Both the position numbers and the translations under genes were made by a program. Below the pieces are notes generated by a model, which saw nothing but the letters and a program-made list of their open reading frames with translations, had not been told where the DNA came from and searched no databases. Below are positions 6,001-53,132 of a DNA stretch of 64,000 nt, in pieces. Numbering within the stretch: the first letter of the stretch is position 1; each line of letters opens with the position of its first letter. Location of the stretch: the NCBI GenBank assembly GCA_963849325.1, contig CAWKHF010000001.1, positions 448,001 to 512,000 of the forward strand, given 5' to 3'. This DNA is from an uncultured Planctomycetota bacterium. Its GTDB lineage: Bacteria; Planctomycetota; Planctomycetia; Gemmatales; Gemmataceae.

Positions 6001-8175
6001 ACCGATTCACGTGGACGTGACGTTGTCTCGCTTCAATGCGGCCACGGCCTGAAGCCGTGGAGAACTCCGTCAGAAACAGCCGACAGGTCGTCAGACGACG
6101 CCAGCTTCAATGCGGCCACGGCCTGAAGCCGTGGAGAACGACACCAACACCACCACCACCAACTCCACCAACACGCTTCAATGCGGCCACGGCCTGAAGC
6201 CGTGGAGAACTCGAATCTGGTCAGAGAGCCGGATTGACCCCGATAGCTTCAATGCGGCCACGGCCTGAAGCCGTGGAGAACCTGATAGCTTGCGACCCGC
6301 TAAAGGCCGCCACGTGGCTTCAATGCGGCCACGGCCCGAAGCCGTGGAGAACAACGCAATGCTGGCGGCGTGGGCCAACGATGCGACGTGCTTCAATGCG
6401 GCCACGGCCCGAAGCCGTGGAGAACCCAGACTTTCAGGATTGCCGAGTACGCATCTAATAGCTTCAATGCGGCCACGGCCCGAAGCCGTGGAGAACGCGA
6501 CCGAGCAACTGCAACTCGCCTCCATGAAGCCTGCTTCAATGCGGCCACGGCCCGAAGCCGTGGAGAACGTACCATCGACCGCCGCCCCGCAAATCGCCGA
6601 ATAGCTTCAATGCGGCCACGGCCCGAAGACCGTGGAGAACTAGGCTCGATGCTGGGGCTGTGGCCGCATCGGTCGGAGCTTCAATGCGGCCACGGCCCGA
6701 AGCCGTGGAGAACTCGCGACCGACGCCGGCCGTACCGATCGAGGAGTGCTTCAATGCGGCCACGGCCCGAAGACCGTGGAGAACCCAACCTTGGGCGATA
6801 CTGTTGCATCCTCTGGCCTGCTTCAATGCGGCCACGGCCCGAAGCCGTGGAGAACGCACCAGTTGCCGAACGCCACCATTGCCCCTCGGTACCGCTTCAA
6901 TGCGGCCACGGCCCGAAGACCGTGGAGAACCCACGTCCCCAAAGGCACGCCGGGCCAAGGAAGGTCAGCTTCAATGCGGCCACGGCCCGAAGACCGTGGA
7001 GAACGCCCTGGGTCACGCATTTGCTCGCCGAATTTGCTCCAGCTTCAATGCGGCCACGGCCCGAAGACCGTGGAGAACCAGCGTGGGGTGTTGGTCGAGC
7101 AAAAGTGGGCTGACAGCTTCAATGCGGCCACGGCCCGAAGACCGTGGAGAACTTGAATACTCGCAATATACACGTCCCGAGTTGACGCTTCAATGCGGCC
7201 ACGGCCCGAAGACCGTGGAGAACGGCAAGTCGCTCTGGCAAACGGCCCCCGTTCTGCCCGTGCTTCAATGCGGCCACGGCCCGAAGACCGTGGAGAACTC
7301 CGATTGAAGCTCTTGGTGAAGCCGCAAAGCTGAGTGCTTCAATGCGGCCACGGCCCGAAGACCGTGGAGAACCCGCCGGGCATTGGAGCGCATCGGCCTC
7401 CGATTGCAGGCTTCAATGCGGCCACGGCCCGAAGACCGTGGAGAACAATGACGCTGTGCTCCGCCTTGCTCTGGCCGATTTGGCTTCAATGCGGCCACGG
7501 CCCGAAGACCGTGGAGAACGCAGCTCGTCTGCAACCGGCTTGCCCATCACCACGAGCTTCAATGCGGCCACGGCCCGAAGACCGTGGAGAACTCGGCCGG
7601 CGAGAGAAGCAATTCCTCGATTTGGCGCGTGCTTCAATGCGGCCACGGCCCGAAGACCGTGGAGAACGAACTCCCATTCGAGATTGTGAGCTTTTCCGGC
7701 GAGCTTCAATGCGGCCACGGCCCAAGACCGTGGAGAACCCTTGATGACAAGGCGGAACCCCATAAACATCGTCCCAGCTTCAATGCGGCCACGGCCCGAA
7801 GACCGTGGAGAACATCGCAACCGAGGGTCACACCGAGTCCAACACGTTTCGGCTTCAATGCGGCCACGGCCCGAAGACCGTGGAGAACGGAACCATCCCT
7901 ATGCACGCCTGGGGGGGATCAAGGCTTCAATGCGGCCACGGCCCGAAGACCGTGGAGAACGTCTGAGGTCGAATCGCCGGCGTCAGGCGAAGGCTGCTTC
8001 AATGCGGCCACGGCCCGAAGACCGTGGAGAACGCAGCCGCTCGTGCCTTGCCTCGACGTGCCGACAGCATGCTTCAATGCGGCCACGGCCCGAAGACCGT
8101 GGAGAACGCTGCCGCATGGGTGCGCGTGGCGACGAGTCGCTTCAATGCGGCCACGGCCCGAAGACCGTGGAGAAC
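14..8175 (-). CRISPR. Large CRISPR array, ~110 repeats (36-37 bp, type I-G/I-U-like), probably continuing past the left edge
   Basis: Repeat GCTTCAATGCGGCCACGGCCCGAAGACCGTGGAGAAC recurs every ~72 bp with unique spacers of roughly 31-41 bp. On the minus strand it reads GTTCTCCACGGTCTTCGGGCCGTGGCCGCATTGAAGC, with hairpin CCACGGTC-TTCG-GGCCGTGG and the 3' ATTGAAGC type I handle. The count is estimated from the period. Confidence 0.99.
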
Positions 8176-8450
8176 CGCTCGCGTTGCAAGCGGTGTATTT
8201 CACGCTCGTTAGAGCGTGCTCTGCGAGCAGGCTGAGGAATTGGAGGAACAGAGGAAGCAGAGGAAACAGTTCCTCATTCGTCAACTCCTGCCGGCGACAG
8301 ATGTTCGGCGACGCGAGCGGCTCGCGGGCCAAGCAAACAACGCATCTCCTCAATTGTCAAAGACCAGCGCCACGGAGACCGGGCGAACACGATTGCAGCA
8401 CCTTGGCGTTCGCGGCATCGATGCGAGAAGAACGGCGTGACCGACAGCGA
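8176..8450 (-). promoter_or_regulatory. CRISPR leader
   Basis: Non-repeat region between the last repeat and the cas6-like gene, at the 5' end of the array in handle orientation. Contains TCTTTGACAATTGA (minus strand, ~8349-8363) and the palindrome GCGAGCGGCTCGC (~8313-8325). Confidence 0.75.
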
Positions 8451-9431
8451 TCATTCGGTTGGGAGGAACAGGCCCAGACCGAAATGAGAGGCGTGGCCCA
8501 GACAAAGCGGCCCCGCCAACTCGCGGTCGAACTCCAGGCGGAACGCCGCCGTCGCTCGATTGGCCCCGTCGTCGCCCGGTTTGCGGCGGCCGCGACGGAA
8601 CTGAAGCGGCCGGAACGAACAGGTGCGGCCTACGTGATCCAAGACAGTATAGGCGGCCGATGCACCGGCCGCCAGGGTGGGTTGACGGCGGAGCCAGCGT
8701 TGGCTTTCTTCGGCAAGGACGCGGGCCGCGAAGTGCGGCCGGCCCGTGAGACCGTGACAGTCGGGCGGGTCTTTCTGACGGCCGCGTTTCTTGGGGCAGC
8801 GCGTGACGACAAACGGCGTGGCCGACTCCCAGACGCGGGCGGGACCAAACAGGCGACAGCGGAAATCCTCCGGCCGGCCCAGCCCCACCAGCAGCACCTG
8901 CAACGGGTCGCCCTCCCCCCAGGGCAGCCGCCGCACGGCTTGGAGGGCCGCCAGCTCGTCGGGGCCGAATCCCTCCGCGGCGTAGACGGTTACGTGATCG
9001 AGGCGGCTGGCGTCGTTCTCGGCCGTGGGCAGATAGTAGGCGTGGTCGTGGGAGTTCAGCGGCCGACCCGTTTCATCCTTTCCGGAAAACACCCGCGAGT
9101 AGAACTGCTGCGGATATCGCTTGGCGGCGTTTCCGTATCTGCGACGGTGCAGAAAGCGCTGAAAGCGATGCATGAGCACATGCCGAAACGCCTCGGCCAC
9201 TGGGAGGGTTTCGGTCACAAGTGGTAGCACCGGGCCGTCGAGCAGGAAGCGGGCGATCGTCATTAAGGCAGTGCCAGGTTTCTCGGTAACCACGACACGA
9301 AATGGGCGGTCATAGGGAACCGCTTCAAGTGTCGCGGAATCCAACGTCGGAACCACAATCGGTGTGATCCGATTGTCCGAGGCCTCTGTGTCAGGCCGCC
9401 GGCGACGCGAACCCCTTCTTGGCCTGCCCAT
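8451..9431 (-). CDS. csb2: Cas6-like crRNA processing RAMP, corresponding to the C-terminal half of type I-G Csb2
   Basis: Motifs FSGKD..GRPL..HDHAYYLP, LDHVTVYA..GF, WESATPFV and the terminal G-loop GPLCLGHASHFGLGLF. AAGGAG RBS before ATG 9431. ~326 aa, with no recognisable N-terminal Cas5 half. Confidence 0.85.
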   Translation of the reverse strand: MGRPRRGSRRRRPDTEASDNRITPIVVPTLDSATLEAVPYDRPFRVVVTEKPGTALMTIARFLLDGPVLPLVTETLPVAEAFRHVLMHRFQRFLHRRRYGNAAKRYPQQFYSRVFSGKDETGRPLNSHDHAYYLPTAENDASRLDHVTVYAAEGFGPDELAALQAVRRLPWGEGDPLQVLLVGLGRPEDFRCRLFGPARVWESATPFVVTRCPKKRGRQKDPPDCHGLTGRPHFAARVLAEESQRWLRRQPTLAAGASAAYTVLDHVGRTCSFRPLQFRRGRRKPGDDGANRATAAFRLEFDRELAGPLCLGHASHFGLGLFLPTE

Positions 9432-9433
9432 GC

Positions 9434-11766
9434 CTAGCTCCTTGTTCGTTTCCACCCTGTGCTGACATCATAAAGTTGAACGGCGAGGCTCATTGGGACA
9501 TGAACGATCTGTGATTCTTGCGACGCCTGGTCAATAGAGTAACCATATCGCTTGGGAACCTCAACGATCCGTTGCCCTAATTCAGGCTGCAGTTTCCGAA
9601 GCCGTCCCCGGCGCTGTCCAGGATCGGATAGCGCGTTCGCTTCCCGGAACTGCCGCCAAACGTCGGCGTCGGCAATGTCAACTTCGACGAAGTGCGCAAC
9701 CGCATCCTGACGTTCGTCGATGAGTCGAACCGCTTTGTCTTGGTCCTTTGCATCGATTCCTTCCCCACGGAGAGAGGCAAACTCCCACTGCTGAACCGCC
9801 TCCATGACCTTGTGAAAGGTGTCCGACCCGGTTCGGCTGGCGACGAGCCTGAAATATTCACCCACGCTCTCTTGGAGTCTTGGCTCGGGTACGGGCGTCC
9901 CTTGACCGGCAGCTCTTTCCAGAACCTCTCGCGGCACCCATCTCCTTGTTGCCATAGATCAGGTTGCCGGTATCTCCTTCCACTCTGACCAGGAAAACCT
10001 GGCCGCGGCGTCCCGTGCCGTGCCGGTTACACCGTCCGGCGGCCTGAACCACGGCGTCTAGGGGGGCCAGCGCTCGGAAAACCACGTCGAAGGACAGATC
10101 GACACCTGCCTCCACCACCTGAGTGGCGATGAGAAGATGCGGCCTACCGTGGCACTTTACGATCTGTTGTAAGATCTTCTTCCGGTCCAGCGGTCGCAAG
10201 TTTGTGGAAAGGTGAAAGACTGGATTATCGGAAACGCCGGGCAGCACCTTACCAAGGCGCATAGGTCGAGGGCTTCCTGGATGGTGTTCACGATGACAAG
10301 GCAAGACGGCTGCTTCGGGTCCGTTACCACATTGCGAATCCGATCAGCCAAGGCGACGAGGCTCACTGGCTGCCCCGTCTGCACATGGAGGTCGTAACGG
10401 TCGAATGCAACCGCCAGCGTTTCAGCCAAGGTCGGGCGCAGCTCGCTCACATCGGTTGCCTCGAAGATGGCCGGTTGGGTAGCCGTTACCAGCAGTACAT
10501 CGGTTCCCCATTGATCGCTCAGTGCTCGCAGCGCGGTGTTGATAAGCCGCCAGAACTTGGCGGGGATGGCTTGCACCTCGTCAAGGATTAAGATGGAACC
10601 AGCCAGGCGGGCAAATCGCCTCGTGTCGGCGACAGTTCCGTGGAACAGGGCGTTTACGACCTGGACGAACGTAGTGCAGATGATGTCGGCTCGCCATCCT
10701 TCGACCCAACTCCGAGCAAGCGACTGCTCGCCGCTCCGCGCCAGCTCGCCCGGCTCCGCGACGTGGTGGTGAACTGCCAGAGTGCTTTCGTCTGGCTCGT
10801 CATCTCCCCATATGCGGCGCAGCACAGACGCGTTCTGGTCGATGATGCTTGTAAACGGCAGCGCGTAGACGATCGGGCACGGGGGAAGGCCAGCGCCAAT
10901 GCGCGCCTCGCGACGCCGGAGCGCCCACCCCAGGGCCGCGAGGGTCTTCCCCGCCCCAGTGGGAACCGTCAAGCTCCATAGGTGGCCCGAGTCGAGCTGG
11001 TCGGAGGTTTGCCCGATCCACGGCGGCCTGATACACGTGTTCTCGTGCCTGAACGACACGCGGGTCGGCCGCTGGACCGAAGTTGGCGGCGGTTCGGAAC
11101 CGCTCCAAGTGGGCAATCGTGAATCGAAGGGGTGCTTTGAAGAGATCAGGTGCGAACCCTGTCGCGGAATCTCGATCTGCCTCAATCAACAGGCCGAACC
11201 AACGCAGCGCGTCCTGGAACCTCTTCATGGCGGCCAACCCGGATGGCCCTTGCCGAAAAGCGGTAGACGAGCTGCACCCGCAGCTTGGCCCATCGCAAGT
11301 CGAGGTCCGGCTTCTGGACCGGCTCGCCAAGACTTGCGGCAAGCCAGGTCGCCGCGCCTTCAAGATCCAGGGCTTGAAGTTGCTTCGCCCACAGGCCACG
11401 CGCCACATCGTCGGATGGGGGCAGTGATTCCAGCGCGTTCTTCAACCCCGTGTGGTGGTGCGCCACCATCAGATACGCCAAGACCGTTTGGTCTATGGTC
11501 AGGCCATGAGCGGCGACCTTGGGTAACAGGTGGTTAAGCAGCCAGACGGCCCCAAGGTGGGCGTGCTGCTTCAACCGGAGATCGCTGACAGGTTGACCCT
11601 TCAGGTAGTGCTGGAAGTGTTCTGTCCCTTTTGCCACGTCATGGAACAGGCCGGCGATCCGACCCAACCAGCCACAGGCGGTTAGCCGATTCGCCACGTC
11701 TTGAAGGTGGCCGGTCAGGGGCTTGCCTGGGTGCGATTCACAGAGCCGAAAAGCAGGTGCCATCAT
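9434..11766 (-). CDS. cas3: Cas3 HD nuclease-helicase (split by several apparent frameshifts)
   Basis: Across consecutive ORF pieces: N-terminal SHPGKPLTGHL..FHDVAK..HAHLG..HHTGL, Walker A VPTGAGKT, YALPFTSIIDQ, ILDEVQ, TATQP, ATQVVEAGVDLSF and QAAGRCNR. Confidence 0.93.
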
Positions 11767-12475
11767 CGCACCTCCAATACGTGCGCATGGTAGCCGTGAT
11801 CGAGCCGCCGGTCGTTTCAAGTAGGTACTCTTCGTACCGCTCCACCTGCCGCGTCGGCAGCATTTCGGCCGGCATGCGAATCCGCTGGTAGACGGCTTCC
11901 TCGTCCCAACGAATGTCCTGTAGATCCGCGGTGCGGATGGGCGATACAAAACGCTGATGCCCGGCCCCGTCGCGGACCTCCTCCGCCTGAACAGTTCGGA
12001 CCACATCCCCGAACCATGCGATCATCCATGCCAGACCGAGGCAAGGGGTGTAATTCGTCATGCCCCGGCGCAGGGTCGTCGCCAACCGCGAACCGAGTTC
12101 GGGATGGCTGAACCAAACCCGATACCGTGGCTCGCGGATGATCTCATACCGCATGATCGTATGCGGGTTCACCGACTTGGGCCGGAAGGTCTGGATGCCA
12201 AGCACGGTCGGCGTTCCCTTGGTGTCGAGAAGGTTGAGCGAAACGTGCCCGGTGCGCAGCGGCGCGAGCATCTGGAGGGCGAATATCGCCTGGGAATCCC
12301 GAAACTGCTCCAGGGAATCATTCTTCGGCAGCCCCAGCACCGCCCCGACGAGACCACAAAGCGCCGTTCGCGGCGGCGCCGGGAAGCTCAGCGCCGTCGT
12401 GATGGCGTACGGCCGCCGGAAGTGGGCCATGTCCGACAGCACATCGAAGACAATGAACTCGCGCGGCATGGTCAT
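11738..12475 (-). CDS. cas5: Cas5 (type I-B/Hmari-like)
   Basis: FDVLSDMAHFRRPYAITTALSFPAPPRTALCGLVGAVLG and YTPCLG; lies between cas7 and cas3. Confidence 0.93.
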   Translation of the reverse strand: MTMPREFIVFDVLSDMAHFRRPYAITTALSFPAPPRTALCGLVGAVLGLPKNDSLEQFRDSQAIFALQMLAPLRTGHVSLNLLDTKGTPTVLGIQTFRPKSVNPHTIMRYEIIREPRYRVWFSHPELGSRLATTLRRGMTNYTPCLGLAWMIAWFGDVVRTVQAEEVRDGAGHQRFVSPIRTADLQDIRWDEEAVYQRIRMPAEMLPTRQVERYEEYLLETTGGSITATMRTYWRCDDGTCFSAL

Positions 12476-13473
12476 TCCAGGTTTAGTGCTTCGGCCGGCA
12501 GGCCCAGGAAGATCCTGTCCGTCGGCTCCGAGGAAAAAGGCAAACGTTTGTCCCAGGCGTAGCGGACTCGTTCGATCCGCTCCTTCTTCCTGTCCAGGGC
12601 CGCCGCGAGTTCACCGAGTTGAAGCGCCACCTCGCGCACTTCGCGGATCTGCTCATCGCGGAGCGTCTGCCTACCTTCCTTCGCCGTTGCCGTGATGGTC
12701 AAGAACCGATCCAGCCGGCCGATGTACGCATTCGGTTCCTTGTATTCGATGACCAGCAGCAACAACGGACGCTGACCGATCTTGGATCGGCTGATGAGGT
12801 TTTTCGTCCCGTACCATATGCCTTTGTACAGTTCCTCGACATCCGCGTCCGTCAGTTTGGTCGTTGTCGCCGCTTGCTGGTTCACGATGCCGTAGAAGGC
12901 GATGAGGGCGTAGGGGAGGATGTACTCCTCGCGGAATGTCCTCTGCTGAGCGCCTTGACCTGACGCGAACGCACCGGTCCCCTTGATGAACCGTGGTTCG
13001 ACGCGGTGCAGGCTGGTACCCATTGCGAACTGAACCGGTCCTGTCAGCGTGACGCTGGAGTCTTTTTCATTTTTTTGGATTTTGGAAACCGGAATCGTGG
13101 CGCCGAAGAGCCGCACGTCGATGCACTCCTTGATGACGCCGGCCTGAATCAGGTCGCGCTTCTGTAAGACATTCGTGGCCTTTTCCCTGGCTTCCTTGGC
13201 GACCTTCTGGAAAAAGTCTTCCGCCCGGTCCTTCCCCTCTTGGATGGTGCCGTCCGGCTTCTCGATCTCCCGACAGAAGATCTCCTGCTTGCCGTAGTCA
13301 TGCAAGTAGTCGCGGATCGTGCGCTTCAGACGCACGTCGGACACTTTGGCCCGGCCGGTTTCCAGGTCCATGCGCGGCCGATTCTCGTCGTTGGGGTCGC
13401 CGTTGGGGTTGGCGTCCGTGATGTCGTAGACGAACAGAATCTCGCTGCGCCGGCTGACCGTCTCAGTCTTCAT
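12472..13473 (-). CDS. cas7: Cas7/Csh2 (type I-B)
   Basis: RSEILFVYDITDANPNGDP..NRPR, VSDVRLKRTIRDY, DVRLFG, SVTLTGPVQF, GTGAFAS and SRSKIGQRP. Confidence 0.95.
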   Translation of the reverse strand: MKTETVSRRSEILFVYDITDANPNGDPNDENRPRMDLETGRAKVSDVRLKRTIRDYLHDYGKQEIFCREIEKPDGTIQEGKDRAEDFFQKVAKEAREKATNVLQKRDLIQAGVIKECIDVRLFGATIPVSKIQKNEKDSSVTLTGPVQFAMGTSLHRVEPRFIKGTGAFASGQGAQQRTFREEYILPYALIAFYGIVNQQAATTTKLTDADVEELYKGIWYGTKNLISRSKIGQRPLLLLVIEYKEPNAYIGRLDRFLTITATAKEGRQTLRDEQIREVREVALQLGELAAALDRKKERIERVRYAWDKRLPFSSEPTDRIFLGLPAEALNLE

Positions 13474-15383
13474 GGATTCGTTTCCTCACTGGTTGCGGGT
13501 AAGGTTCCTTCGTCTTCCTGTTCCTTGGCGAGCCTAGATCGCAGGGCGTGCCCCAGGGCGAAGTAATAGGAGATGTCGTCCGGGCCCAATGTCCAGCGTT
13601 CCGCCGTCGCGGCCAAAGCGGAGGCAGCGCAGCTCAGCAATCCGCTGACGATGCGCTCCTTGTCGGGGCCATATGCCTTGGCTTTGTCCTTGGCGGCGAT
13701 GAACAATCGCTGAACGTCTGGTTGGTTCAAGCGGAAGCCCTTATACTTCCCCTCGAAGGGCGTCGATCCGCGCACCAGGCTCTGGATCGTCTCGATTCGT
13801 CCGCAGCACGCCCCGACCAGGAAGGCTGCCTGGGCAGCGGGGTCGGTACGAAGCCGGCTGGTTTCCGGCGCTTGCTGGAAGAAGTGGCGGACACGATCCG
13901 CCTGCTCGTTACCTCCGTAGTCCACTATCATAGTCGGCTGGCTCCTTTCGTTGTCTCCTCTTGTAAGTTCCTCAAAAAACAGAAGCGACCGGAAGAGATC
14001 GGCGAGCCTGAACGGCCAAGCCTTGCCCTCCAAGTAGTCTTCTTGAACCCAACGCATCCCGATCTCGACCATGCGGTCGGCGCGATGTGGTCGGATCTCC
14101 AAGGCTGGCGAGTGGCTGAAAGAAAGTCATCGTCGAAGGTGCTACCGCCGCGTGCCGCAGGATAGATGTTTCTGAAGCAGCCGAAGGTAAACCTCCCTTC
14201 GGTGAAGGTCTTTGGGCTCGGCGGTTGAAGCCAGGGATGACGATCAACCCGATCCTGCGCACGGAAGAGTTCCCGGAATCGGGACGGTAGTAAGCCGAAC
14301 ACGGTAGAGCGCTGGCCGGAACGACTGCGGGTCGGGTTGGTAAAAGAGCAGGTCGAGTTGTAGCCGGTTGTTCTCCTCCGCAATGATCTCGAACAGGTCG
14401 TCCTCCGCATCCGTGAGCCGTTTCGATGCCTTGCGATCCACACGAGCGCTGGCTAATCGGTTCAGGGATTGGTAGGTGTCGGTCGCTGCCAGCCGCACCG
14501 AGGCCGGCAACATCAGATACTTGAAGCCGTAGTAGTTGAAAGAGAGATCCCTTTTGATTCGTTCACCGGAGAAATCAACCTTGTCACAGCACTCGCGACA
14601 GGCGGGAAAGTTCCGCCAGGCGTCCAGCGCATCGAAACCTCCTGACACAGAGCCGGGTTTGTCCAGCGTGTAAACCTTGAACTGCTGGATTTGGAGCAGG
14701 CCAGATACCTCGGCATCCCGTCTGCCGCAGATACAGCACTGACCCACGCCCTTGACATCACCCCCTATGCCCTTCTTCTTTGATGCAGCTTCCGTCCCTT
14801 TGCGGACTAGCGCCTGCTGGAAGGCTTTGAAGTCACCAACCCATCGGGCCTCGCCTTCCGAAGGCCGCCAGGCCACCGAGAGGATCGCTGGTTTCGTCAG
14901 ATCGGGGTGGGCTTCCCGCAAGCGGATGAAGATGGCCGATCGAGGATCGCTGCCCGCTGACCCCTGTTTGTCCTTGGGAGACTGCAAACGGTCGCGCATG
15001 ACGGCAAGCGCCTCGCACTCGCATGTCGGTAGGTCTTCGCACTGCTCCAACGCTTCATTGATGCTGCGAGCAAGCCGGCTGAGTTTCTTGCCGATTTCCC
15101 CATCGGCCGTGTTCTCCTTGCCCTTCTTGACAGTCGCCATTCCGGTCGTCGGCGTCGCGTCCCACCCGTTCGGCGGTCCTGGTCGGTAGAGGCAGCGCAA
15201 ACGGCGACCCTCGTCGTATTCGTCCACCTGCACCCCCTCAAAGCCGTCGGATGAGAATACGAGCAGCAGGATTTCCTTGGTGCGAAATTTGGCCGACGGG
15301 TCGGCCGCATATTGGATCAGCTGGTCCTTGACCCCTTCTCGTTCGAGGTAGAACTGGCCGAGTTCGGCGAATTGATGTATCAC
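13470..15383 (-). CDS. cas8b: Cas8b/Csh1 (TM1802-like) large subunit, frameshifted near 14290 and 14100
   Basis: C.ICG Zn motif, FKVYTLDKPG..SGGF..AWRNFPAC.EC and C-terminal AAFLVG..Q...PF...YYFALG; lies immediately upstream of cas7. Confidence 0.88.
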
Positions 15384-15598: not shown

Positions 15599-15710
15599 CT
15601 TCTCCACGGTCTTCGGGCCGTGGCCGCTTTGAAGCAGGCGTCTGCCAGTGGGACAGTTGACCGACCATAGTGAGTTCTCCACGGCCTTCGGGCCGTGGCC
15701 GCATTGACAG
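15599..15710 (+). CRISPR. Mini-array 1 (2 repeats, one 38-nt spacer), opposite orientation to the main array
   Basis: CTTCTCCACGGTCTTCGGGCCGTGGCCGCTTTGAAGC (15599-15635), spacer 15636-15673, GTTCTCCACGGCCTTCGGGCCGTGGCCGCATTGACAG (15674-15710). Confidence 0.93.
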
Positions 15711-15779
15711 GTGCTGCCGACCATCGCCCCTTTCTCTCCCGTACCGTCCGCCCGGTCAGGAGATTGCCGGAGACTGTCC

Positions 15780-16007
15780 ATGACCACCGTTTCCCTTTCG
15801 GAAGCTCAAGCCCATCTGCCGGAACTGTTGGAAAAAGTCGCGGCCGGTCAGGAGGTCGTCATCACGCGCGATGATACGCCGCTCGCCTTGATAACGCCCA
15901 TTTGCACGGCCAATCCGCAACCGCGGTTCGGCAGCTGCAAAGGAATGCTCTCCATCGTGAGTGATGATGAGGAACACCTGGAGCACTTCAAGGAGTACAT
16001 GCCTTGA
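15780..16007 (+). CDS. Phd/YefM-family antitoxin
   Basis: MTTVSLSEAQAHLPELLEKVAAGQEVVITR..P.A; overlaps the PIN toxin start. Confidence 0.88.
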   Translation: MTTVSLSEAQAHLPELLEKVAAGQEVVITRDDTPLALITPICTANPQPRFGSCKGMLSIVSDDEEHLEHFKEYMP

Positions 16008-16390
16008 GGCTCCTGCTCGATACGCACACGTTCCTCTGGTTTACGCTCGGCGACACCCAGTTGAGCCCCACAGCGCTGGCCCTCATCAATGATCCGGGGA
16101 ATGACAAGCTTATCAGCCCAGCCAGCTACTGGGAGATAGCCATCAAGGTCAGCATCAGGAAACTGGCCCTGAACCAGCCCTTCGAGGACTTCCTCGATCG
16201 CGGAATCCGGCAGAACGGCTTCAAAATTTTGCACATCGACCTGCGACACACGGCACGCGTGGTCACGTTGCCGTTCCACCACAAGGATCCGTTCGACCGT
16301 CTGCTCATCGCCCAAGCGTTGACCGAGGGCATCGCCATCGTGGGGGCTGACACGCTCTTCGATCAGTACGGCGCGACGCGGTTGTGGTAG
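16004..16390 (+). CDS. vapC: VapC PIN-domain toxin
   Basis: LLLDTHTFLW, SPASYWEIAIK and HHKDPFDRLLIAQA. Confidence 0.93.
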   Translation: MRLLLDTHTFLWFTLGDTQLSPTALALINDPGNDKLISPASYWEIAIKVSIRKLALNQPFEDFLDRGIRQNGFKILHIDLRHTARVVTLPFHHKDPFDRLLIAQALTEGIAIVGADTLFDQYGATRLW

Positions 16391-16408: not shown

Positions 16409-16693
16409 TTACACCACCACAACCACATCCTTCGCATCGGCCGCCTCCGTCGGCCGGCCGAGCGCCTCGATCGCGTTCACGCACTTCGCGCACAGCGGGA
16501 TGAACAGCACCTGATCCTGCTCCAAGTTGATGAGATCATACAGCCGCGACCGCAAACGTACAAAGTCGGTAGCGGACAAGCGACACAAAAACACCGAATA
16601 TTGCTTGCGGTAGCCGAAGTCCTCGCACACCGTCGCCACCTTGCGCAGACGTTTCGGATCGCTGATGTCGTAGGCGACGAGGTAGCTATCCAA
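16409..16693 (-). CDS. cas2: Cas2
   Basis: [25 protein letters not shown], 94 aa. Confidence 0.96.
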
Positions 16694-16699
16694 GGATTA

Positions 16700-16734
16700 C
16701 CCCTCACCCTACCCTCTCCCCAAGGGGCGAGGGA
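16700..16734. repeat. REP-like palindrome (CCCTCACCCTACCCTCTCCC...GGGGCGAGGG)
   Basis: Intergenic hairpin between cas1 and cas2; a related hairpin lies at ~46319-46349. Confidence 0.55.
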
Positions 16735-16742
16735 CGATCGGC

Positions 16743-18462
16743 TCACCGCACCGTGAAGCCCGTGTACGCCGGCACCGAGCCGCGCACGTACGCGGCCAGC
16801 ATCCGCGCCTGCACCTCCAGCATCCGCGAATAGCTCATCTTGTAGCCGTACACCGGGTGCGTCACCACCGTCGCCTTCCGCTGCTCGTAGGCCTGGAAGA
16901 ACTTCCGCCGGCCCGAGTCCGTCAGCTGACACGCCTCGCGCCACACCAGGAAATCGTCCGGCGTCAGCATCTCGTTGTTGATCAGCGTCAGCACCACCGA
17001 GTCGGCGATCACCGGGCGGAACTCCTCCATCAGGTCCAGCGCCAGCGACGGCTTGCCGTGGCGGTTGGAGTGGAAGAAGCCCTTGTACGGGTCGAATCCC
17101 ACCGTGCAGACCGCCGCGAAGCAGTCCTTCGTCAGCATCGCGTAGGCGAACGACAAGCAGCGCGTTCACCGGGTCGCGCGGCGGGCGGCGGTTGCGCGTC
17201 GTGAACTCGAAGCCGCGGCCCGGCGGCTGCACCTGCAGGAAGCGGCCGAACTCGCCGAAGTACAGCGCCGCTCCCTGCCCCTCCAGCCCCAACACCGTCT
17301 CCAGCGGACGCGGCACTGTCCAACCGCCGGATCAGGTCCGCCAGACCCCGCGCGGCCGGCTCGTCGCTGCCGCGGTCGCCGTCGCCGCGCAGGCTGCGCA
17401 TCAGCAGCGCCCGCTGGTTGGTGAGCTTGGCCCGCACCACCGCCTTCGACAGCGTCAGGCACTCCGCGGCGTCGGCGAAGCGGCGGAACTGCGCCTCGCG
17501 CAGCCCGACGTTCTTGCGCTCGGCCGGCGCGAACGTGCCGATGAACCGGCCGTAGCCCGTCAGGTAGGCCACCGGGATCTCGTTCGTCACCAGCGTCTCC
17601 AGCGCCTGCGTCGAAACCTGCACGTTGCCGAAGACCACCACCTGCCGGATCGCGTGCATCGGCACCCGCGTCACCTCCTGGCCGTCCTTGCGGACGACCA
17701 GATGCTCGCTGCGCTTGCCGACGTGGCTGCCCGGCTCCTGCACGTACAGCACCGCGCCGTCGTCGGACTGCGGGATCACCCGCGTCAGGCCGGGCGGCGG
17801 CGAGGCCGTTTCCTCGGCGGCCGGCGGCAGGCCGATCTGGTAGAGCGTCTCCTCCGGCAGACAGACCGGGGCCAGCGAGCAGCCGAAACAGCGGTGCCGC
17901 AGCTCCGCCGGCAGCGGGTCCGGCGGGGCGTCCAGGGCAGACAGCCGCCGGCATTCGTCGATGGCCGTGCGCGTCTTCGCCCGCAGCTCGTCGCGTGAAG
18001 CGGACCTCGACGCGCTCGCGCGTGCCGGCGTAGAACTGGAAGCCGCGCTGCACCGGCGCGCCGAACGCTTCTTCCATCAGCAGCGCCTGGCCGCACAGCT
18101 GCACGGCGTCGTTGTCCCAGGTCGTCGGCCGGCCGTCGTCGTCGCGCGGGGCGGAGCCGTGCTTGGTCTCCACCGGGTAGGACACGCCGTCCTTCTCCTC
18201 GATCACGTCGAGGACGCCGCTGATGCCGAGCGTCTCCGACGACAGGTGGACGCCGCGACTGCGGTTTGCATCGCCTTCCTTGCGCGTCTTGTTGGCCAGT
18301 TCCGGCTCATCGACGCGGCGGTGATCGAACAGGCCGGCCTCGACGTGTTCGTTGGTGCGGCATCACGGCATCGACGTACTGGAGGTAGTAGAGGCGCGGG
18401 CAGTAGGTGACCTGGTTCAGTGCGCGCAGGGGGATCATCTGGGCGTCGGTCGTTGCGGTCAT
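16743..18462 (-). CDS. cas1: Cas4-Cas1 fusion (type I-G-like), frameshifted in this sequence
   Basis: Cas4 part: [30 protein letters not shown] and a C-terminal Cys cluster. Cas1 part: [48 protein letters not shown] and LEVQAR. Confidence 0.93.
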
Positions 18463-18490
18463 GATTCACCTCAGAGAGTCCGAGTAAGGG

Positions 18491-20407
18491 TTAATCCACC
18501 ATCCGCAGCTTGCAAGGCGCCGGATCCATAGCCACCAGGAGCGGCCGAGAAAGGTGCGTGAAACTGACCACCGCCTGACCCGGCGCCAGTCCCGGGATGC
18601 GGCTCCACAGCGACTCGTCGATGCCGCTGATGGTATGTCGCAGGTTCATTAACACCTGCGGGTCGGTCAGCTTGTGCAGCACAAAGTTGTTGCACAGCGA
18701 CAAAACCTGACGGGGCAAGTGCGCGGGTAACTGTGTCACGAACACCAGCCCGAGCCAGCGCTTCCGGCCGCGCTTGGCGATGCGGGCCACTTGCTGGAAC
18801 AGCGTGTCCATCCGCTCGATGCGATCCGCACTGAGGAACTCGTGCGCTTCCTCAATGATGAGCAGGACGCGAGGAACCGGCGGGTCCTGCCCCGCGGCCT
18901 TCGCCTTCTCGTAGCGGCGGTAGGCATTTTCTTGGGCTTTCTGAACGCCGCGCATCAGATCGGCGATCGCAAAATTCGCCAGTTCCGTCATGCCGGTGTC
19001 CGAAAGGTCCACCACGGAAACCTGACCCGGTGCGATGAGCTGGTCGTAGTTCAGCGGCGGAGCGCCGCGTTTTTGCAAATGGCGATCAAACACTTTCAAG
19101 CGATTCAGCCGCCAGAGCAGGCTCTTGACCTTGCCCCACGAGGACGCACTGCTCAGTTCCTTTGCCTTGATGTGTTTCTCCAACGCCGCGCGGCCGGCGT
19201 CGGTACGGAGCACGGCGTTGTATGGCTCGAAGCTCGTTTTGCTCACCGTCGCCAGACACTTGCCGACCACGTCGAGCAGCAGCGACAGCGTCAGGCGGGG
19301 CCAGCCGCGCTCGAACTCGTCGATGCGGAGCAGCAGCTGTTCCTGCTTGTCCACTTCTTCCTTCGGCTTGTCCCGTTGTGGGAAAATGCCGAGGTCGCGC
19401 ATTATCGCCTTGGTGATTTCGTAGGCCGGAAGAAACCGCTCAGATTGAGCATCGTTCATCCCCAGCATTTCGATAACCGCGTGCGGAGAAAGCGCGGCAA
19501 ACTGGAGCGAGAACTCGCTGCGGTTTGGATGGCGCGGGTTCGTGGACTCACGACCGACAAGGTGGTACAGCCGCATGGAGTCCGCGGGGATGCCGGCTGG
19601 CGACAGGCCACGCTCCTGCAAGGCGTCCAGCATCGTGCGGTGATCGGCCGGTTCGTGCAAGTGCGTGTATTCGCCCTCGACATCCAGCAGAATGACGGTC
19701 ATCCCCACGGCCTGAGCTTGCTGGATCAAGCCCGCCACCGTCGTCGATTTGCCGCCGCCCGTTGTACCGAGGACCGCGACGTGGCGCGGCAGCACGGCCT
19801 TCTTGTCGGACGGTACGTTGACGATCACCTCGCTCGCCCCAACCACGGAACCCAGCCGGATGTCGCCATCGGTGTGCAGGACTGCGGCTACCTCCGATTG
19901 CGTCAGGGCAACGACGGGGCTATTGGGCAGCGGTCGCAGGCGCGGCGGAACCAGCGAGCCGTTCTTGAGTTCCTCGCCCAGAATCGAGACCGTCGCGCGG
20001 CCGTGGTAGGGCGGCAGATAGACGCCGCCGCGCGCCGTCACGGTGACGAGCAAATGCGAGTCGGCCCGTAGCGTGTCCGGTTCAGCAAAGGGACCGGCGG
20101 TCACGATGCCCAGGTACTTGCGCCCGTCGCAGCTCTTGATGCGCACCAGGGATTGCGACGGCGCCTGTTGGGCGTGATCGCGCGGCAGCAGGACCGTCAC
20201 GCTGCCGTCTTCGCTGCCGGGCAGGTCGAACATGGTCGCGCCGATGGCGCCTTCCCGATCCGGGTCGGGAGCCAACTCGCCGCCGGCACGGGTTACGTCG
20301 GCTTGGACCTGCTGGAGCAGATCCTCCGGCGGACGGGCGATGCCCAGGTCTTCCTGGCCGTTGTCGTGTGCCGTCCTAGGCGTTGGTCGCGTTGTGGGTG
20401 CAGGCAT
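18491..20407 (-). CDS. herA: HerA/FtsK-family ATPase (DUF87)
   Basis: N-terminal HAS-barrel-like region, HVAVLGTTGGGKS, ILLDVEGEY, LLIIEEAHEF and RIAKRGRKRWLGLVFVTQLP. Confidence 0.9.
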   Translation of the reverse strand: MPAPTTRPTPRTAHDNGQEDLGIARPPEDLLQQVQADVTRAGGELAPDPDREGAIGATMFDLPGSEDGSVTVLLPRDHAQQAPSQSLVRIKSCDGRKYLGIVTAGPFAEPDTLRADSHLLVTVTARGGVYLPPYHGRATVSILGEELKNGSLVPPRLRPLPNSPVVALTQSEVAAVLHTDGDIRLGSVVGASEVIVNVPSDKKAVLPRHVAVLGTTGGGKSTTVAGLIQQAQAVGMTVILLDVEGEYTHLHEPADHRTMLDALQERGLSPAGIPADSMRLYHLVGRESTNPRHPNRSEFSLQFAALSPHAVIEMLGMNDAQSERFLPAYEITKAIMRDLGIFPQRDKPKEEVDKQEQLLLRIDEFERGWPRLTLSLLLDVVGKCLATVSKTSFEPYNAVLRTDAGRAALEKHIKAKELSSASSWGKVKSLLWRLNRLKVFDRHLQKRGAPPLNYDQLIAPGQVSVVDLSDTGMTELANFAIADLMRGVQKAQENAYRRYEKAKAAGQDPPVPRVLLIIEEAHEFLSADRIERMDTLFQQVARIAKRGRKRWLGLVFVTQLPAHLPRQVLSLCNNFVLHKLTDPQVLMNLRHTISGIDESLWSRIPGLAPGQAVVSFTHLSRPLLVAMDPAPCKLRMVD

Positions 20408-20423
20408 AGCTGTTCTCCTCTCC

Positions 20424-21698
20424 TCAATCGTGACGAGTCGTGCGTTCGCTGAAGTAGCGCCAGGGCGCACCGGCCGCAGCGTAGGCCGTTTCGGTCAGGT
20501 GGTGCAGACTGCCGCCGAACACCGAATCGCAAACGTGATGGGCCAAGTCGATCAGCAGCGGGAAGCCGCGCTCTTCTTGGAACATGCTGTCGGCCAGCAC
20601 GATATGGGCGGCGAAGTGAGCGTGGTCCACATGGGCGTAGAAGAGCTGCGCTGGAGCCAGGATCGAGGCGCGGTACAGGCCAACCACCACTTGCGACGCG
20701 ACACGCTCGATGAAGCGTGGTATCCATTCCGGCGGGGACAGCCGCTCGCCGTCCCAGAATAAGTCCCCGGAGGATTCCATCGTGAATCGGCGTTGTTGGA
20801 ACCAGCCTTCCAGACGCGGAGCCAAGTTGCCGAGGATGGCGTAATGCAGCGGAGGCAGCGCCTGGCCAATGGTCAGCGCCAGCAGTTCACGGGGCTCACT
20901 GGCCACGAAGACGAATTTGCCGTAACCCTCGATCAGTTCGCGCATCATCCCGGTCGCGGCGACCATCAATTCCAGGATGTCGGCGCCAGTCAGCAATTCG
21001 TAAGTGATCGGATTGCCGTGGCCCATCCGCCAAACCGCCCTCGATTGGCGGAGGAGAATGGCCCGTTCGGCGTAATCCATGACAGCCTTCCTCGCCAATT
21101 CGCCGAGTTGGTCGCTCGGCGTTCCGTGGTTGAGGGCGGCTCGTTGGTCGCGGCGTCGGAGCAGCTCTAATACCTCATTAAGGTCCGCGGGGCCGCGTTG
21201 CCGCAGGTCGCGGCGGAAGAGTCGCTGCTGCCATGTGCCTTGATCGCCAGCGTAGGATACCAGCGAAACGCCGACCTGGTAGATCGTCAGAGGCAGCGTA
21301 GCATGTACCTGAACCGTCCCGTCACACGCTTCCACACCGCCGTTAAATAACAGGCCGCGATGAATGAGGGCGAGAATGTCCATGTTCGCGGTGAAGACGC
21401 CGCAGCCCGGTGCCGAAGCTGGGTCGATAAGCTTTGGGAAAACTTCGCTGCGAATGCACCGTTGGTACTCGTCCTCCTGGGCGATGGCCTCACGCACTTC
21501 GCGCTCGATACGCGGATACTCCTGCGCCAGGTCTCCTCCCAGCCGCCATGTGTTCACATCGAGAACCCGTTGCAACTCCTCACCGAAGCTCGCTCGAAAC
21601 TCGGCGGCGGTTGCCGGTTCCGAAGGCAGGCGCGTCGGCGACCGTGCCGCGGCCGACACGGGGGATGCTGCATCGTCTCGGGATGTGGTGGTTGCCAT
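20424..21698 (-). CDS. nurA: NurA-like (RNase H fold) nuclease
   Basis: VEACDGT resembles the NurA AVDGS motif and GFPLLIDLAH resembles GYP..L..AH; directly upstream of herA. Confidence 0.72.
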   Translation of the reverse strand: MATTTSRDDAASPVSAAARSPTRLPSEPATAAEFRASFGEELQRVLDVNTWRLGGDLAQEYPRIEREVREAIAQEDEYQRCIRSEVFPKLIDPASAPGCGVFTANMDILALIHRGLLFNGGVEACDGTVQVHATLPLTIYQVGVSLVSYAGDQGTWQQRLFRRDLRQRGPADLNEVLELLRRRDQRAALNHGTPSDQLGELARKAVMDYAERAILLRQSRAVWRMGHGNPITYELLTGADILELMVAATGMMRELIEGYGKFVFVASEPRELLALTIGQALPPLHYAILGNLAPRLEGWFQQRRFTMESSGDLFWDGERLSPPEWIPRFIERVASQVVVGLYRASILAPAQLFYAHVDHAHFAAHIVLADSMFQEERGFPLLIDLAHHVCDSVFGGSLHHLTETAYAAAGAPWRYFSERTTRHD

Positions 21699-21780
21699 CG
21701 TTCGTTCTCCCACGCGCTTTGCCGGCACCCTCGCGCCTGACTATACTCTCCTGGATTAAAGTGGTCGCGCCCGTCCCTTG

Positions 21781-21807
21781 TCCGTGGCCCAGTTCTTTGA
21801 CAATTGA
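21781..21807 (+). promoter_or_regulatory. Leader-derived motif upstream of mini-array 2
   Basis: TCCGTGGCCCAGTTCTTTGACAATTGA matches the main leader (minus strand TCCGTGGCGCTGGTCTTTGACAATTGA) at 24/27 positions. Confidence 0.75.
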
Positions 21808-21834
21808 ACCGCATCGCCTTGCCACCTCGACGAG

Positions 21835-21946
21835 GTTCTCCACGTTCTTATGAACGTGGCCGCATTGAAGATCCCTCACTACTTCCCGACATGCGCGACA
21901 AAGTTCGACATTCTCCACGGTCTCATGGCTGTGGCCGCATTGAAGT
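21835..21946 (+). CRISPR. Mini-array 2 (2 diverged repeats, one 38-nt spacer)
   Basis: GTTCTCCACGTTCTTATGAACGTGGCCGCATTGAAGA (21835-21871), spacer 21872-21909, ATTCTCCACGGTCTCATGGCTGTGGCCGCATTGAAGT (21910-21946). Confidence 0.88.
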
Positions 21947-21984
21947 GTAAGCAATCCCGCAAGCTCGCCGTGGCAAGCCAACGC

Positions 21985-22719
21985 TCAGGAGCGCAGTCGC
22001 TGGAGCAACGGATCTTCCCGGACGGGCGGTAAGAGGAGACGGCTATAGTCCTTAGCCTGCTCCTGCGGCAGACCGAAATCGGCTTGCAACACTTCCGCAA
22101 GTCGGATTCTTCCTTCCACACCCGAAATCGACCCGGCTCGCGCCCATACGTCGGCGGCAGGCGCCAGCAGTTCGTAGGCGACCTGATCGGCTTCCTCTTC
22201 GGCCAGCGTGATGGTCGCGTGAAGCACTTCCCGGCGCGGGCCACGCCGCATCAAATGCAGATGAAAACCGAGGGAAATGCTTTTCAAGAGCGCATGAAGA
22301 CACTCCTCTGGCGTCGGCGGGCGCTCCCCGTCCAGGACTTCCACGATTCGTTTCCCCAAGTAGCGGCACGCCCGCCGCCGAGGATGCCAGTAATGTCGCA
22401 GAAAATGAGCCAACTCGTGTGCCAGTGAGAAACGCTGGTCGTCATCGCTGTCGGTTCCGTCGAGAAAGATCAGTCCATGACCGAAATGGGCCGCCAGGCA
22501 AGCCCGCAACGGACGATCCGCTTCGTCGCAACGACAGGCGATCCCGTTCCGGCACAACCAGTCACGGACACTATCAAGCCGTAAATGCGGCAGCAAGACG
22601 ATGGATACCGGCAGCGCCCGGACTATGGGCCGGCGTAATTCACGAGGGAAGGATTCGTCCAAGCCCGCAGCCGCCCAGAACTCACGGATCAATTCCGCGA
22701 TCCACAGCGGCACTCTCAT
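21985..22719 (-). CDS. ImmA/IrrE-family Zn metallopeptidase
   Basis: QRFSLAHELAHF (HExxH) followed by EEEADQVAYELLAP. Confidence 0.85.
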   Translation of the reverse strand: MRVPLWIAELIREFWAAAGLDESFPRELRRPIVRALPVSIVLLPHLRLDSVRDWLCRNGIACRCDEADRPLRACLAAHFGHGLIFLDGTDSDDDQRFSLAHELAHFLRHYWHPRRRACRYLGKRIVEVLDGERPPTPEECLHALLKSISLGFHLHLMRRGPRREVLHATITLAEEEADQVAYELLAPAADVWARAGSISGVEGRIRLAEVLQADFGLPQEQAKDYSRLLLPPVREDPLLQRLRS

Positions 22720-23099
22720 GACTTCGCTCCTTGCGGCGGAGTGTCTTCCGTCGTATTGTCTCGCGCCGCTAACAGGAATCCTTTCTCGCTGTTTTGGCCG
22801 CCGGCGCCAATCCGAAGCCGCAACAGGCTGTGACCCCGCCTGGCAACCTCGGCCAAGACCTCAGCATCGAGCGAGAAGCGCTGCGCGATCTTTTCGACAT
22901 CTTGCCAGAACAGAGGGGCCTGCGCTCGGGGCATCCGGCACAGGCGCAGATGGGTGAGGATTCCCTCGGAACAACCGAGCCGGATGGCCAATCCGGCATC
23001 CTCAAGCTGTTCGCTTCGGGCATACTCCGCCAGCGCGCTGGCGAAAAAATCGGGAGCATCGGCGACACGCAGGGCCAGGTGTTCCAGGTACGGATTCAT
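22716..23099 (-). CDS. Small hypothetical protein (possible HTH / anti-sigma / peptidase substrate)
   Basis: 127 aa, ATGA overlaps with both neighbours; contains LAIRLGCSEGILTHLRLCRMP and LLAARD. Confidence 0.7.
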   Translation of the reverse strand: MNPYLEHLALRVADAPDFFASALAEYARSEQLEDAGLAIRLGCSEGILTHLRLCRMPRAQAPLFWQDVEKIAQRFSLDAEVLAEVARRGHSLLRLRIGAGGQNSEKGFLLAARDNTTEDTPPQGAKS

Positions 23100-23731
23100 G
23101 CTTTTCTCCCGGCTCGCTCCAGCATCTTCTTTAACCGATCCTTGTTTCGCTTCACCTGCCGGAATTGCTCTTTCGCAGGCAGGTGCAACAAACCGTAGAG
23201 TTCGGCGAAGATTTTGGTCCGGCGTTCCTTCCGCAAAATCAAATCCAGCGCGCGGGAGTCGGTTTCGGACAAACCTTGGCAGACGGAATTTGAGATGGAG
23301 TTCATCGCGCTCTCGTCTTCCTCAGCCACTCGCATCGGGAGTGACGGATCGTCATGGCGTCCCAGATACTTCCCGGCCTCCTGCGAAAGTTCGACACTTT
23401 TCCACGAAACCCGGCCTTTGTTGTGTCTCCGTTCTTTATCGAGAAGGTTGCGCAAGTCTCCGCGGGCTGACATGCGCAGGTACACTTCCAGGGTCTGCCG
23501 TTCCGGAGAGTACGACCGCGGATTACGAATCAAAGCCAGCAGGGCATCCTCCGCAGCCTCGATGCGGACATCCGGAGGCACGCTCGCGTCGGTTTTGGCC
23601 AACCAGGCGACGAGCGGTTCCAGGTAGGCGTCAGCCAGATCATTCGGGGCAGTTGGATCATCAGCCAGGAGGCGCTGATGAATTTCAAGCGCGTTCGGTT
23701 GCCTGGGTGTTAAGGCGGTAGGACGGGCCAT
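23096..23731 (-). CDS. Divergent ECF/sigma70-like RNA polymerase sigma factor
   Basis: Region 2-like EAAEDALLALIRNPRSYSPERQTLEVYLRMSARGDLRNLLDKERR and a C-terminal region 4-like HTH (FAELYGL..VKRNKDRLKKML). Confidence 0.7.
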   Translation of the reverse strand: MARPTALTPRQPNALEIHQRLLADDPTAPNDLADAYLEPLVAWLAKTDASVPPDVRIEAAEDALLALIRNPRSYSPERQTLEVYLRMSARGDLRNLLDKERRHNKGRVSWKSVELSQEAGKYLGRHDDPSLPMRVAEEDESAMNSISNSVCQGLSETDSRALDLILRKERRTKIFAELYGLLHLPAKEQFRQVKRNKDRLKKMLERAGRKA

Positions 23732-49660: not shown

Positions 49661-49899
49661 GGTGCGTACCTCCTACGACGATGGGCTGGTGACGGGTCGG
49701 TGTCAGCCGACCACGATTGGACATTGGGTTGTCGGAAAGTACGAGTTTGCGGGGATGATCCTATCAGTCCAATCGATGGAAGGCAACGATTTTTGGCTCG
49801 GTTAAGAAAATGCGAAAATGAGAAAACGCAACACTCGCGCCGGACGTGGTGCCGGCGTCTGGACGGGGGCCGTTTCGTTCTGGCGCTGGTTTGATTTCC

Positions 49900-49956
49900 C
49901 GAGCCGCGAGCGTCAGCGAGCGGGAACGGCATCGCTCGCTGACGCTTGCGGCTCGG
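49900..49956. repeat. REP-like palindrome (GAGCCGCGAGCGTCAGCGAGCG...CGCTCGCTGACGCTTGCGGCTC)
   Basis: Intergenic inverted repeat; related half copies at ~53332 and ~57304. Confidence 0.7.

Positions 49957-50051: not shown

Positions 50052-53132
<3,081 letters not shown>

Follow-up and report, generated by a model that had tools for sequence, protein, structure and literature searches.

A CRISPR mini-array upstream of a NurA-like gene that may have replaced its own protospacer

The stretch of DNA analyzed here (64,000 nt, hereafter the window) is part of an 8.16-Mb metagenome bin (14 contigs, 85% complete) assigned to the Gemmataceae (Planctomycetota) and carries a CRISPR-Cas locus with a long main array and two mini-arrays (Table 1). 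Mini-array 2, located between a NurA-like gene and a convergent ImmA/M78-like gene, consists of two degenerate repeats, R1 and R2, on either side of a single spacer. As judged from alignment with related alleles, this spacer is a native nurA-upstream segment and not a foreign or dedicated guide. The explanation that we favor, with a probability of roughly 0.45, is that a cassette made up of its own promoter, a shortened leader, and the repeat-spacer-repeat unit replaced its own protospacer. Mini-array 2 has the appearance of an instance of self-targeting that became fixed, rather than of a conserved regulator. Alleles with the cassette (filled) and without it (empty) are both available for direct comparison, and the repeat-guide-repeat unit stands on a match flanked by a candidate protospacer adjacent motif (PAM), in what is likely the control region of acquisition genes.

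Filled and empty alleles upstream of nurA

The empty allele is known from soil-metagenome contigs from three runs of three studies and from a fourth, more distant contig. The former differ from the window at 0–1 positions in 30–49 nt to the left and at 5–7 positions in 63–183 nt to the right, and they join position 21713 to position 21947 through 39 other letters, which stand in place of 233 nt (21714–21946) of the window. The fourth metagenome contig skips 21711–21963. In the filled allele, the 233-nt cassette comprises 121 nt, R1, the 38-nt spacer, and R2, and its right border is exactly the last base of R2, as the joint in the contigs lies at 21947. Reconstructed from 21704–21713 and the 39 letters, the empty allele reads TTC, 38 nt, 7 nt, and then 21947 onward. 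The 38-mer directly after this TTC matches the spacer of mini-array 2 at 34/38 positions without gaps; spacer positions 5, 18, 21, and 27 differ. Because the TTC-flanked 38 nt of the empty allele match to this extent, the spacer is taken to be the host's own sequence. The matching site with its TTC is thus present in the empty allele of close relatives and gone from the window's own genome.

TTC is a common PAM of type I-B, I-C, and I-G systems. A search of 249 spacers from the same genome and 79 spacers from relatives against the genome and the compared loci resulted in one strong match only, in which a main-array spacer aligns at 34/35 positions with C6:235120–235154, the sole strong self-match of the main array, with TTC as its 5' flank. 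This self-matching spacer is number 91 from the leader and possibly represents a tolerated self-target or a prophage target. The main array gave no match in a phage collection, and its spacers matched the relatives' cas loci over 13–18 nt only, which is the chance level for 251 queries. Among the 249 parsed main-array spacers, 44 are 38 nt long and 203 are 35–38 nt long. The start directly after TTC, the normal spacer length, and the presence of repeats on both sides therefore point to a product of acquisition, unlike two chance insertions.

The spacer contains two boxes, which on the nurA strand read GTCGAACTT (21901–21909) and GGGAAGTA (21880–21887); all four mismatches to the empty allele fall outside them. 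Related nurA loci (L013–L019) were compared, which amount to six distinct loci, as L014 and L017 are identical in the region; here and below, compared loci are labelled L and relatives' genomes G, with G000 denoting the window's own genome. Both boxes are found upstream of nurA in all six distinct relatives, 16–19 nt before the start codon and with 11–12 nt between them, in divergent form in L018 and L019. In the window and in five of the six relatives scanned, each locus has two copies of the pair, one upstream of nurA and one inside orf211, an extracytoplasmic function (ECF) sigma-like gene. A genome-wide scan for the boxes yielded 12 fuzzy hits, of which the two exact ones are the two copies of this locus. 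The box pair is probably the promoter of the nurA-herA-cas4/cas1 adaptation block. It is read as a promoter for the orf211 sigma factor because of its GAAC-type first box and its distance to the start codon, and that factor possibly recognizes it; alternatively, it may be an operator or a duplicate of the copy inside the coding sequence. With the cassette in place, the boxes are 182 nt from the nurA start instead of 16–19 nt and face a convergent promoter-like site, and we infer an effect on nurA in cis. A five-codon mini-open reading frame (ORF) (21865–21848, − strand; ATG CGG CCA CGT TCA TAA) is preceded by a GAGGGA ribosome-binding site and follows immediately on the GGGAAGTA box, in the former place of nurA. 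It is built from the first bases of the spacer and the complement of R1, the altered loop of which supplies the stop codon.

The original prediction had described mini-array 2 as a fixed regulatory CRISPR RNA (crRNA) selected for Cas6 processing, a claim that random decay or absence of the repeats at homologous loci would speak against. No repeats were found between the immA-like gene and nurA in any of the six distinct related loci, nor were the repeats of mini-array 2 found in any of four closely or moderately related metagenome contigs.

Repeats, leader block, and promoter-like site of the cassette

Both repeats have the properties of the repeat family of the main array (GTTCTCCACGGTCTTCGGGCCGTGGCCGCATTGAAGC, 37 nt), namely a length of 37 nt, an 8-bp hairpin, and the 3' handle region CCGCATTGAAG(C). 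R1 and R2 are each identical to the main repeat at 31/37 positions, with changes at positions 11, 16, 17, 19, 20, and 37 in R1 and at positions 1, 15, 16, 17, 21, and 37 in R2, and they differ from each other at 7/37 positions. In a canonical array the repeats would be identical and the spacer foreign, neither of which is the case here. When the two repeats are pooled, the changes fall in the loop (5/8 positions), the last base (2/2), position 1 of R2, and the stem. In the R1 stem, G11-C20 has become U-A, a true double change, and U12-G19 has become U-A, whereas in R2 G10-C21 has become G-U. All eight pairs (positions 6–13 with 18–25) and positions 26–36 (CCGCATTGAAG) are intact in both repeats, and the folding energy of the hairpin is −12.9 kcal/mol for R1 and −12.1 kcal/mol for R2. 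The predicted preservation of the hairpin by compensatory change, together with retention of CCGCATTGAAG, is thereby confirmed for both copies.

Such retention is rare under random decay. In simulations, six random substitutions kept the eight pairs and left positions 26–36 untouched with P = 0.0037 per repeat, and three random substitutions in the stem retained the eight pairs with P = 0.021. Across 21 repeats of the family from 12 genomes or contigs, 94.6% of the hairpin cells are paired and four pairs carry double changes, a result reached by none of 500 shuffles; all four double compensatory changes sit in solitary or mini-array repeats. These data agree with the proposed selection on hairpin and handle, but a mini-array with intact hairpins is in itself no evidence for a conserved regulator. 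Allowing at most one mismatch, CCGCATTGAAG has 115 matches in the window (1.49 expected), 112 of which belong to the main array on the − strand and three of which, at 15624, 21860, and 21935, are on the + strand. Among the matches listed in a search of the 8.16-Mb genome, long matches to the main repeat occur outside the main array only in the two mini-arrays, with E-values of 6e-4 and 0.01 for mini-array 2.

Upstream of R1, the leader-like block at 21781–21807 aligns with positions 8376–8350 (− strand) of the main leader at 24/27 positions and ends 27 nt before the repeat, compared with 174 nt in the main array, in agreement with the truncated leader copy reported originally. The main-array leaders of G000, G009, G073, and G145 hardly vary in the corresponding distal block, and the copy in the cassette is slightly nearer to the G009 leader (17/17 around TTGACA) than to that of its own genome. 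Local alignment to these four main leaders gave scores of 31–41, against a shuffle maximum of 29. The leader of a three-repeat array in G036 scored 24, equal to its own shuffle maximum, and the regions upstream of the other mini-arrays and solitary repeats gave leader-alignment scores not above those of shuffled sequences. About 148 nt of the leader are absent from the cassette, including a stretch conserved in the four main leaders and the TTGCAACGCGAGCG-type junction. As the leader copy is truncated and devoid of the conserved leader-repeat junction, it is plausible that mini-array 2 is unable to acquire spacers, as had been supposed. The divergent orientation relative to nurA also stands, with the array on the + strand, the NurA-like gene on the − strand, and a promoter-like site within the cassette itself.

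Apart from the 27-nt leader block, no second copy of 21699–21834 was found in the genome. A search of 252 family genomes with the upstream part of the cassette returned main-array leaders (G009, E = 0.003; own genome, E = 0.01) and one stretch in about 40 genomes. The latter is present once per genome and is 87–90% identical to the 30 nt before R1 (21802–21832). In L034, the one locus read, it falls in a coding region that we take from its translation to be that of NADH dehydrogenase subunit D, and a search of Rfam with three loci holding such a stretch gave no matches. With the L034 stretch being coding, the likeness was set aside as a coincidence and not as a sign of a cassette donor. The flanks have diverged less from the empty allele than the cassette has from the main array (31/37 in the repeats, 24/27 in the block), so the cassette either predates its present flanks or has come from another source.

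Course of events and competing explanations

We propose that a spacer was taken from the promoter of the adaptation block, either that of the same cell or that of a conspecific, and that the resulting self-match was resolved as the spacer-bearing cassette replaced the target, which would have parted the protospacer from its TTC. At present, the + strand would be transcribed from the cassette promoter, and the Cas6-type enzyme could cut both hairpins to release one crRNA starting with AUUGAAGA at ~21864. Mini-array 2 probably still yields this one Cas6-cut crRNA, as far as the intact hairpins and the promoter-like site suggest, and the predicted crRNA matches the empty allele of conspecifics at 34/38 positions next to TTC. 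The two alleles, their collinearity, the TTC, the spacer length of 38 nt, the preservation of hairpins and handle, and the lack of another target are observed; acquisition, the route of replacement, transcription, Cas6 cutting, and the effect on nurA are the steps that this proposal would add.

Several points weigh against this proposal. Its weakest part is the route of replacement, as we could derive no simple recombination path that places repeats on both sides of the target. No donor of the 121-nt upstream part was found in the own genome or in the 252 family genomes, and a recent copy of the cassette from the present main array is unlikely, since the parts of the cassette are more diverged than the flanks. 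The assignment of TTC as the PAM of this system would follow from one spacer match and the PAM usage of type I-B, I-C, and I-G systems, and the TTC in question belongs to the complement of the nurA ribosome-binding site, such that its position could be a coincidence. The frame-split cas8b, cas3, and cas4/cas1 genes may reflect an inactive CRISPR system or indel errors of the assembly. The cassette is known from one metagenome-assembled genome (MAG), and no public run was found that holds it and would give it independent read support; for 21600–22100, no RNA run was listed. Ectopic integration of the neo-CRISPR type was considered and rejected: it predicts duplicated native sequence flanking a foreign insert, and the opposite is seen.

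The regulatory reading holds that mini-array 2 is a fixed, selected crRNA of the CreR/CreA kind that, by directing Cascade to a promoter, tunes the adaptation genes or a toxin. The retained hairpin and handle, the promoter-like site that the array has of its own, and a spacer that corresponds to a promoter-like cas motif all fit, and according to Table 1 of Shmakov et al. (10.1101/2023.03.03.530964, partial text), mini-arrays are found in 18% of type I-B loci. We consider it unlikely, because no second target is apparent. Both strands of the window were scanned for runs from spacer position 1, with every sixth base ignored, and neither mini-array spacer gave a run of at least 10 nt; the best run of the mini-array 2 spacer is 8 nt, at 38567–38604, outside the cas locus. 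Among the matches listed, a genome-wide BLAST search with this spacer returned 11–16 nt at chance level only (E ≥ 2.4). The only homologous site is the spacer itself, which is flanked by AGA from the end of R1 and not by TTC, and the second copy of the boxes at 23367–23396 is out of register with the seed. With no PAM-flanked target in the window scan or among the genome matches listed, the predicted crRNA would not be an autoregulator, and the absence of the repeats from every relative compared is at odds with a conserved function. The claim of a fixed regulatory crRNA is accordingly not supported. Unlikely too, if marginally less so, is that the array-like look is accidental and that two repeat-bearing pieces came to flank a native segment by illegitimate recombination, leaving inert debris. 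The native GTTCTCCCAC, the complement of the ribosome-binding site, resembles the first 9 nt of the repeat (GTTCTCCAC) and may have helped such recombination; solitary repeats are scattered widely in relatives, the cassette is present in one genome only, and the cas genes are possibly broken. Chance would, however, have had to produce a spacing of exactly 38 nt and a left border tied to TTC, to spare stem and handle in both repeats at P = 0.0037 each, and to place the leader block and the promoter-like site in the correct order and orientation.

Less probable again is a more active role, in which the cassette would be a natural guide-only homing or guarding element that destroys or converts the empty allele of conspecifics, a bacterial counterpart of a gene drive. 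As a selfish mini-CRISPR, its crRNA would turn the host Cascade-Cas3 on the incoming empty allele, and the element would resist loss and might spread, a version to which we give slightly less credence still. The cassette lies within and disrupts its own recognition site, with the PAM separated from the target; alleles of both kinds, filled and empty, are present in close relatives, and the cassette looks older than its flanks, as expected of a unit that moves between backgrounds. On the other hand, the filled allele is known once only, a difference at seed position 5 in the empty alleles should weaken cleavage, and nothing points to spread. A position inside its own recognition sequence, which is thereby split, is a feature that the cassette shares with homing endonuclease genes and synthetic CRISPR gene drives. 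Unlike these, the cassette consists of a guide only, with no nuclease, and cleavage and copying are hypothetical. Of all these explanations, an assembly artefact of the long-read metagenome bin is the least credible. The lack of an independent run with the cassette and the frame breaks in several cas genes, which may be indel errors, are in line with it, but the junctions are clean, the spacer is collinear with native DNA, and there is no source for a chimera because the cassette repeats and the 121-nt part are unique in the genome.

Among known systems, mini-array 2 is most like the crRNA-like mini-arrays (CreR, CreA), yet it lacks two of their defining properties, a separate PAM-flanked target and conservation. 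As in CreR and the regulatory mini-arrays of types I-B, I-E, I-F1, and V-A, two degenerate repeats lie by the cas genes, divergent from the cas operon, the hairpin and handle are kept, and the guide corresponds to a promoter-like cas region. In CreR, however, the match of the guide to a separate, PAM-flanked promoter site is only partial, and related loci share the element (10.1101/2023.03.10.532045 and 10.1101/2023.03.03.530964, both in partial text). In mini-array 2, the whole promoter-like segment serves as the guide at its native place, no second site was found, and the array is absent from all relatives examined. CreTA also consists of a mini-array, with one or two ectopic repeats within a type I cas locus (Nucleic Acids Research 2022, PMC9458426, as far as the text was accessible), but the seed scan of the window found no toxin gene with a guide-matched promoter here; the five-codon mini-ORF described above lies behind the boxes. 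Small promoter-driven repeat-guide units aimed at a cas promoter are likewise seen in viral and phage mini-arrays (Cracr/crlRNA), which repress host cas promoters (10.1101/2024.10.29.618823, partial text); the cassette similarly looks foreign to its flanks, although no phage or plasmid context was found at mini-array 2. One IMG/VR contig filed as viral (L043) has the same repeat family with unrelated spacers; its first 280 nt are an array end of this family, including a degenerate last repeat.

Mini-array 2 shares with self-targeting spacers an origin in the host chromosome and a target that is now without a PAM. The known escapes from self-targeting are mutation or deletion of the target, loss of the spacer, and inactivation of cas genes (PMC6990116, partial text), whereas here the spacer-bearing cassette occupies the place of the target. 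A cassette replacing its target was not found in the available parts of PMC6990116, 10.1101/2023.03.03.530964, and 10.1101/2024.10.29.618823 or in the literature listings searched, which is no proof of novelty. If replacement of the protospacer by its own cassette is correct, it would represent either a self-targeting outcome of a new type, with an array unit taking over the place of the target, or a selfish guide guarding its insertion site. In a weaker form of the homing or guarding reading, target replacement would be an undescribed exit from CRISPR autoimmunity and a route by which regulatory mini-arrays originate beside promoters that they come to control. To our knowledge, the origin of regulatory mini-arrays such as CreR and CreA beside the promoters they control is not known.

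Locus layout and other repeats of the family

Table 1. Coordinates of the features of mini-array 2 and its surroundings in the window
Feature	Position	Strand	Remarks
Main CRISPR array	14–8175	−	112 repeats inside the window
Main-array leader, 275 nt	8176–8450	−	conserved distal block 8350–8376 and junction motif adjoining repeat 1
Csb2-like (Cas6-type) gene	8451–9455	−	TIGR02165, E = 3.6e-19, C-terminal half of the model only
Mini-array 1	15599–15710	+	repeat with 2 changes, 38-nt spacer, repeat with degenerate last 4 bases
herA	18491–20470	−	adjoins the 424-aa NurA-like gene
NurA-like gene, 424 aa	20424–21698	−	first of the nurA-herA-cas4/cas1 block
Left junction, native GTTC + TCCCAC	21704–21713	+	TTC with the initial 6 nt of the ancestral protospacer; also complementary to the nurA ribosome-binding site
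Cassette upstream part, 121 nt	21714–21834	+	not in the empty-allele contigs
Sigma-70-like site TTGCCG-17 nt-TATACT	21719–21747	+	sole site of the region in a promoter scan, 0.1 expected
Leader-like block, 27 nt	21781–21807	+	TTGACA at 21797–21802; 24/27 with the main leader
Repeat R1, GTTCTCCACGTTCTTATGAACGTGGCCGCATTGAAGA	21835–21871	+	8-bp stem kept through a G-C to U-A double change
Predicted 5' handle in R1, ATTGAAGA	21864–21871	+	
Mini-array 2 spacer, 38 nt	21872–21909	+	
Box TACTTCCC(G) in spacer	21880–21888	+	
Box AAGTTCGAC in spacer	21901–21909	+	
Repeat R2, ATTCTCCACGGTCTCATGGCTGTGGCCGCATTGAAGT	21910–21946	+	stem kept with one G-U pair; loop TCAT
Native intergenic DNA	21947–21984	+	up to the ImmA/M78-like stop codon; covered by empty-allele contigs; homologous to L013 and L016
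ImmA/M78-like gene	21985–22719	−	Peptidase_M78, E = 2.5e-8
ECF-sigma-like gene orf211	23096–23731	−	first of the orf211-orf127-immA-nurA-herA-cas4/cas1 block
Second box copy, inside orf211	23367–23396		

The locus combines type I-B effector genes with an I-G-like Cas3, Cas4/Cas1, and a Csb2-like Cas6. The main array continues to the left on the contig, beyond the window, and has about 260 repeats in all. To the right of its leader, the − strand encodes the Csb2-like Cas6-type protein, the presumed processing enzyme, followed by Cas3 pieces, cas5b, cas7/csh2, and cas8b; next come mini-array 1, a phd/PIN pair, and then, again on the − strand, cas4/cas1 pieces, herA, and the 424-aa gene. Three of these regions are split into two or three reading frames each (cas3, 9434–12006; cas8b, 13470–15383; cas4/cas1, 16477–18502). 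Because an out-of-frame N-terminus is also present in L013, a related long-read MAG, the frame breaks in the cas genes may stem from indel errors rather than decay. Identity to L013 is 94% for the Cas1 part and just 76–78% for nurA, which suggests that the cas locus is a mosaic.

The 424-aa NurA-like protein had no sequence match in Pfam, NCBIfam, or the PDB. In an Atlas feature search, however, all 30 hits fell in one cluster set with a top score of 0.97, and in the three rows listed 21–64% of the cluster members carry NurA PF09376. Its homologues in L013–L019 are 38–86% identical. For orf211, Pfam gave Sigma70_r2 (E = 0.0038) and the best PDB profile match was the ECF factor SigE (E = 0.34). 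Five of six orf211 homologues match TIGR02937 (sigma70-ECF; best E = 1.6e-8), a model that the copy in the window does not match. The gene order orf211-orf127-immA-nurA-herA-cas4/cas1 recurs in L013–L018; in L019, the most distant locus, no match to orf127 or cas4/cas1 was found. To the right of the cassette, 21950–21970 has a 21-nt exact match (E = 5e-5) with the coding interior at C12:807583–807603, which is unexplained and may be due to chance.

Mini-array 1 is oriented divergently to cas8b and is immediately followed by the phd/PIN pair (15711–16390), with a TATAAT about 50 nt upstream of the array. A two-repeat array with a weakly similar spacer is present at the same position relative to cas1 in G169 (L024:1498–1607). 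The possibility that mini-array 1 corresponds to native DNA in G003 was rejected, as that genome has unrelated sequence upstream of phd. Other Gemmataceae also carry degenerate repeats of the family, singly or in pairs (L012:2742–2778, −; L016:611–647, +; L032:1500–1611, −; L004:1500–1536, −; and in L026, L027, and L030). Among these scattered repeats, compensatory stem changes from C-G to A-U (G009) and from A-U to G-C (G112) were seen. The solitary repeat of L016 ends 16 nt before the start of a sigma-like gene, and the second repeat of the G112 pair has a TCTCAT loop in common with R2.

Within the main array, blocks of 36-nt repeat variants are present in the part inside the window, and to the left of the window a 1991-nt interruption lies between the 136th and 137th spacer units from the leader. 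At the other end of the window, very long G+C-rich repeat runs with a period of 12 or 18 nt (47400–62200; families D1, D2, D4, and D8) presumably represent genes for glycine-rich repeat proteins on the − strand.

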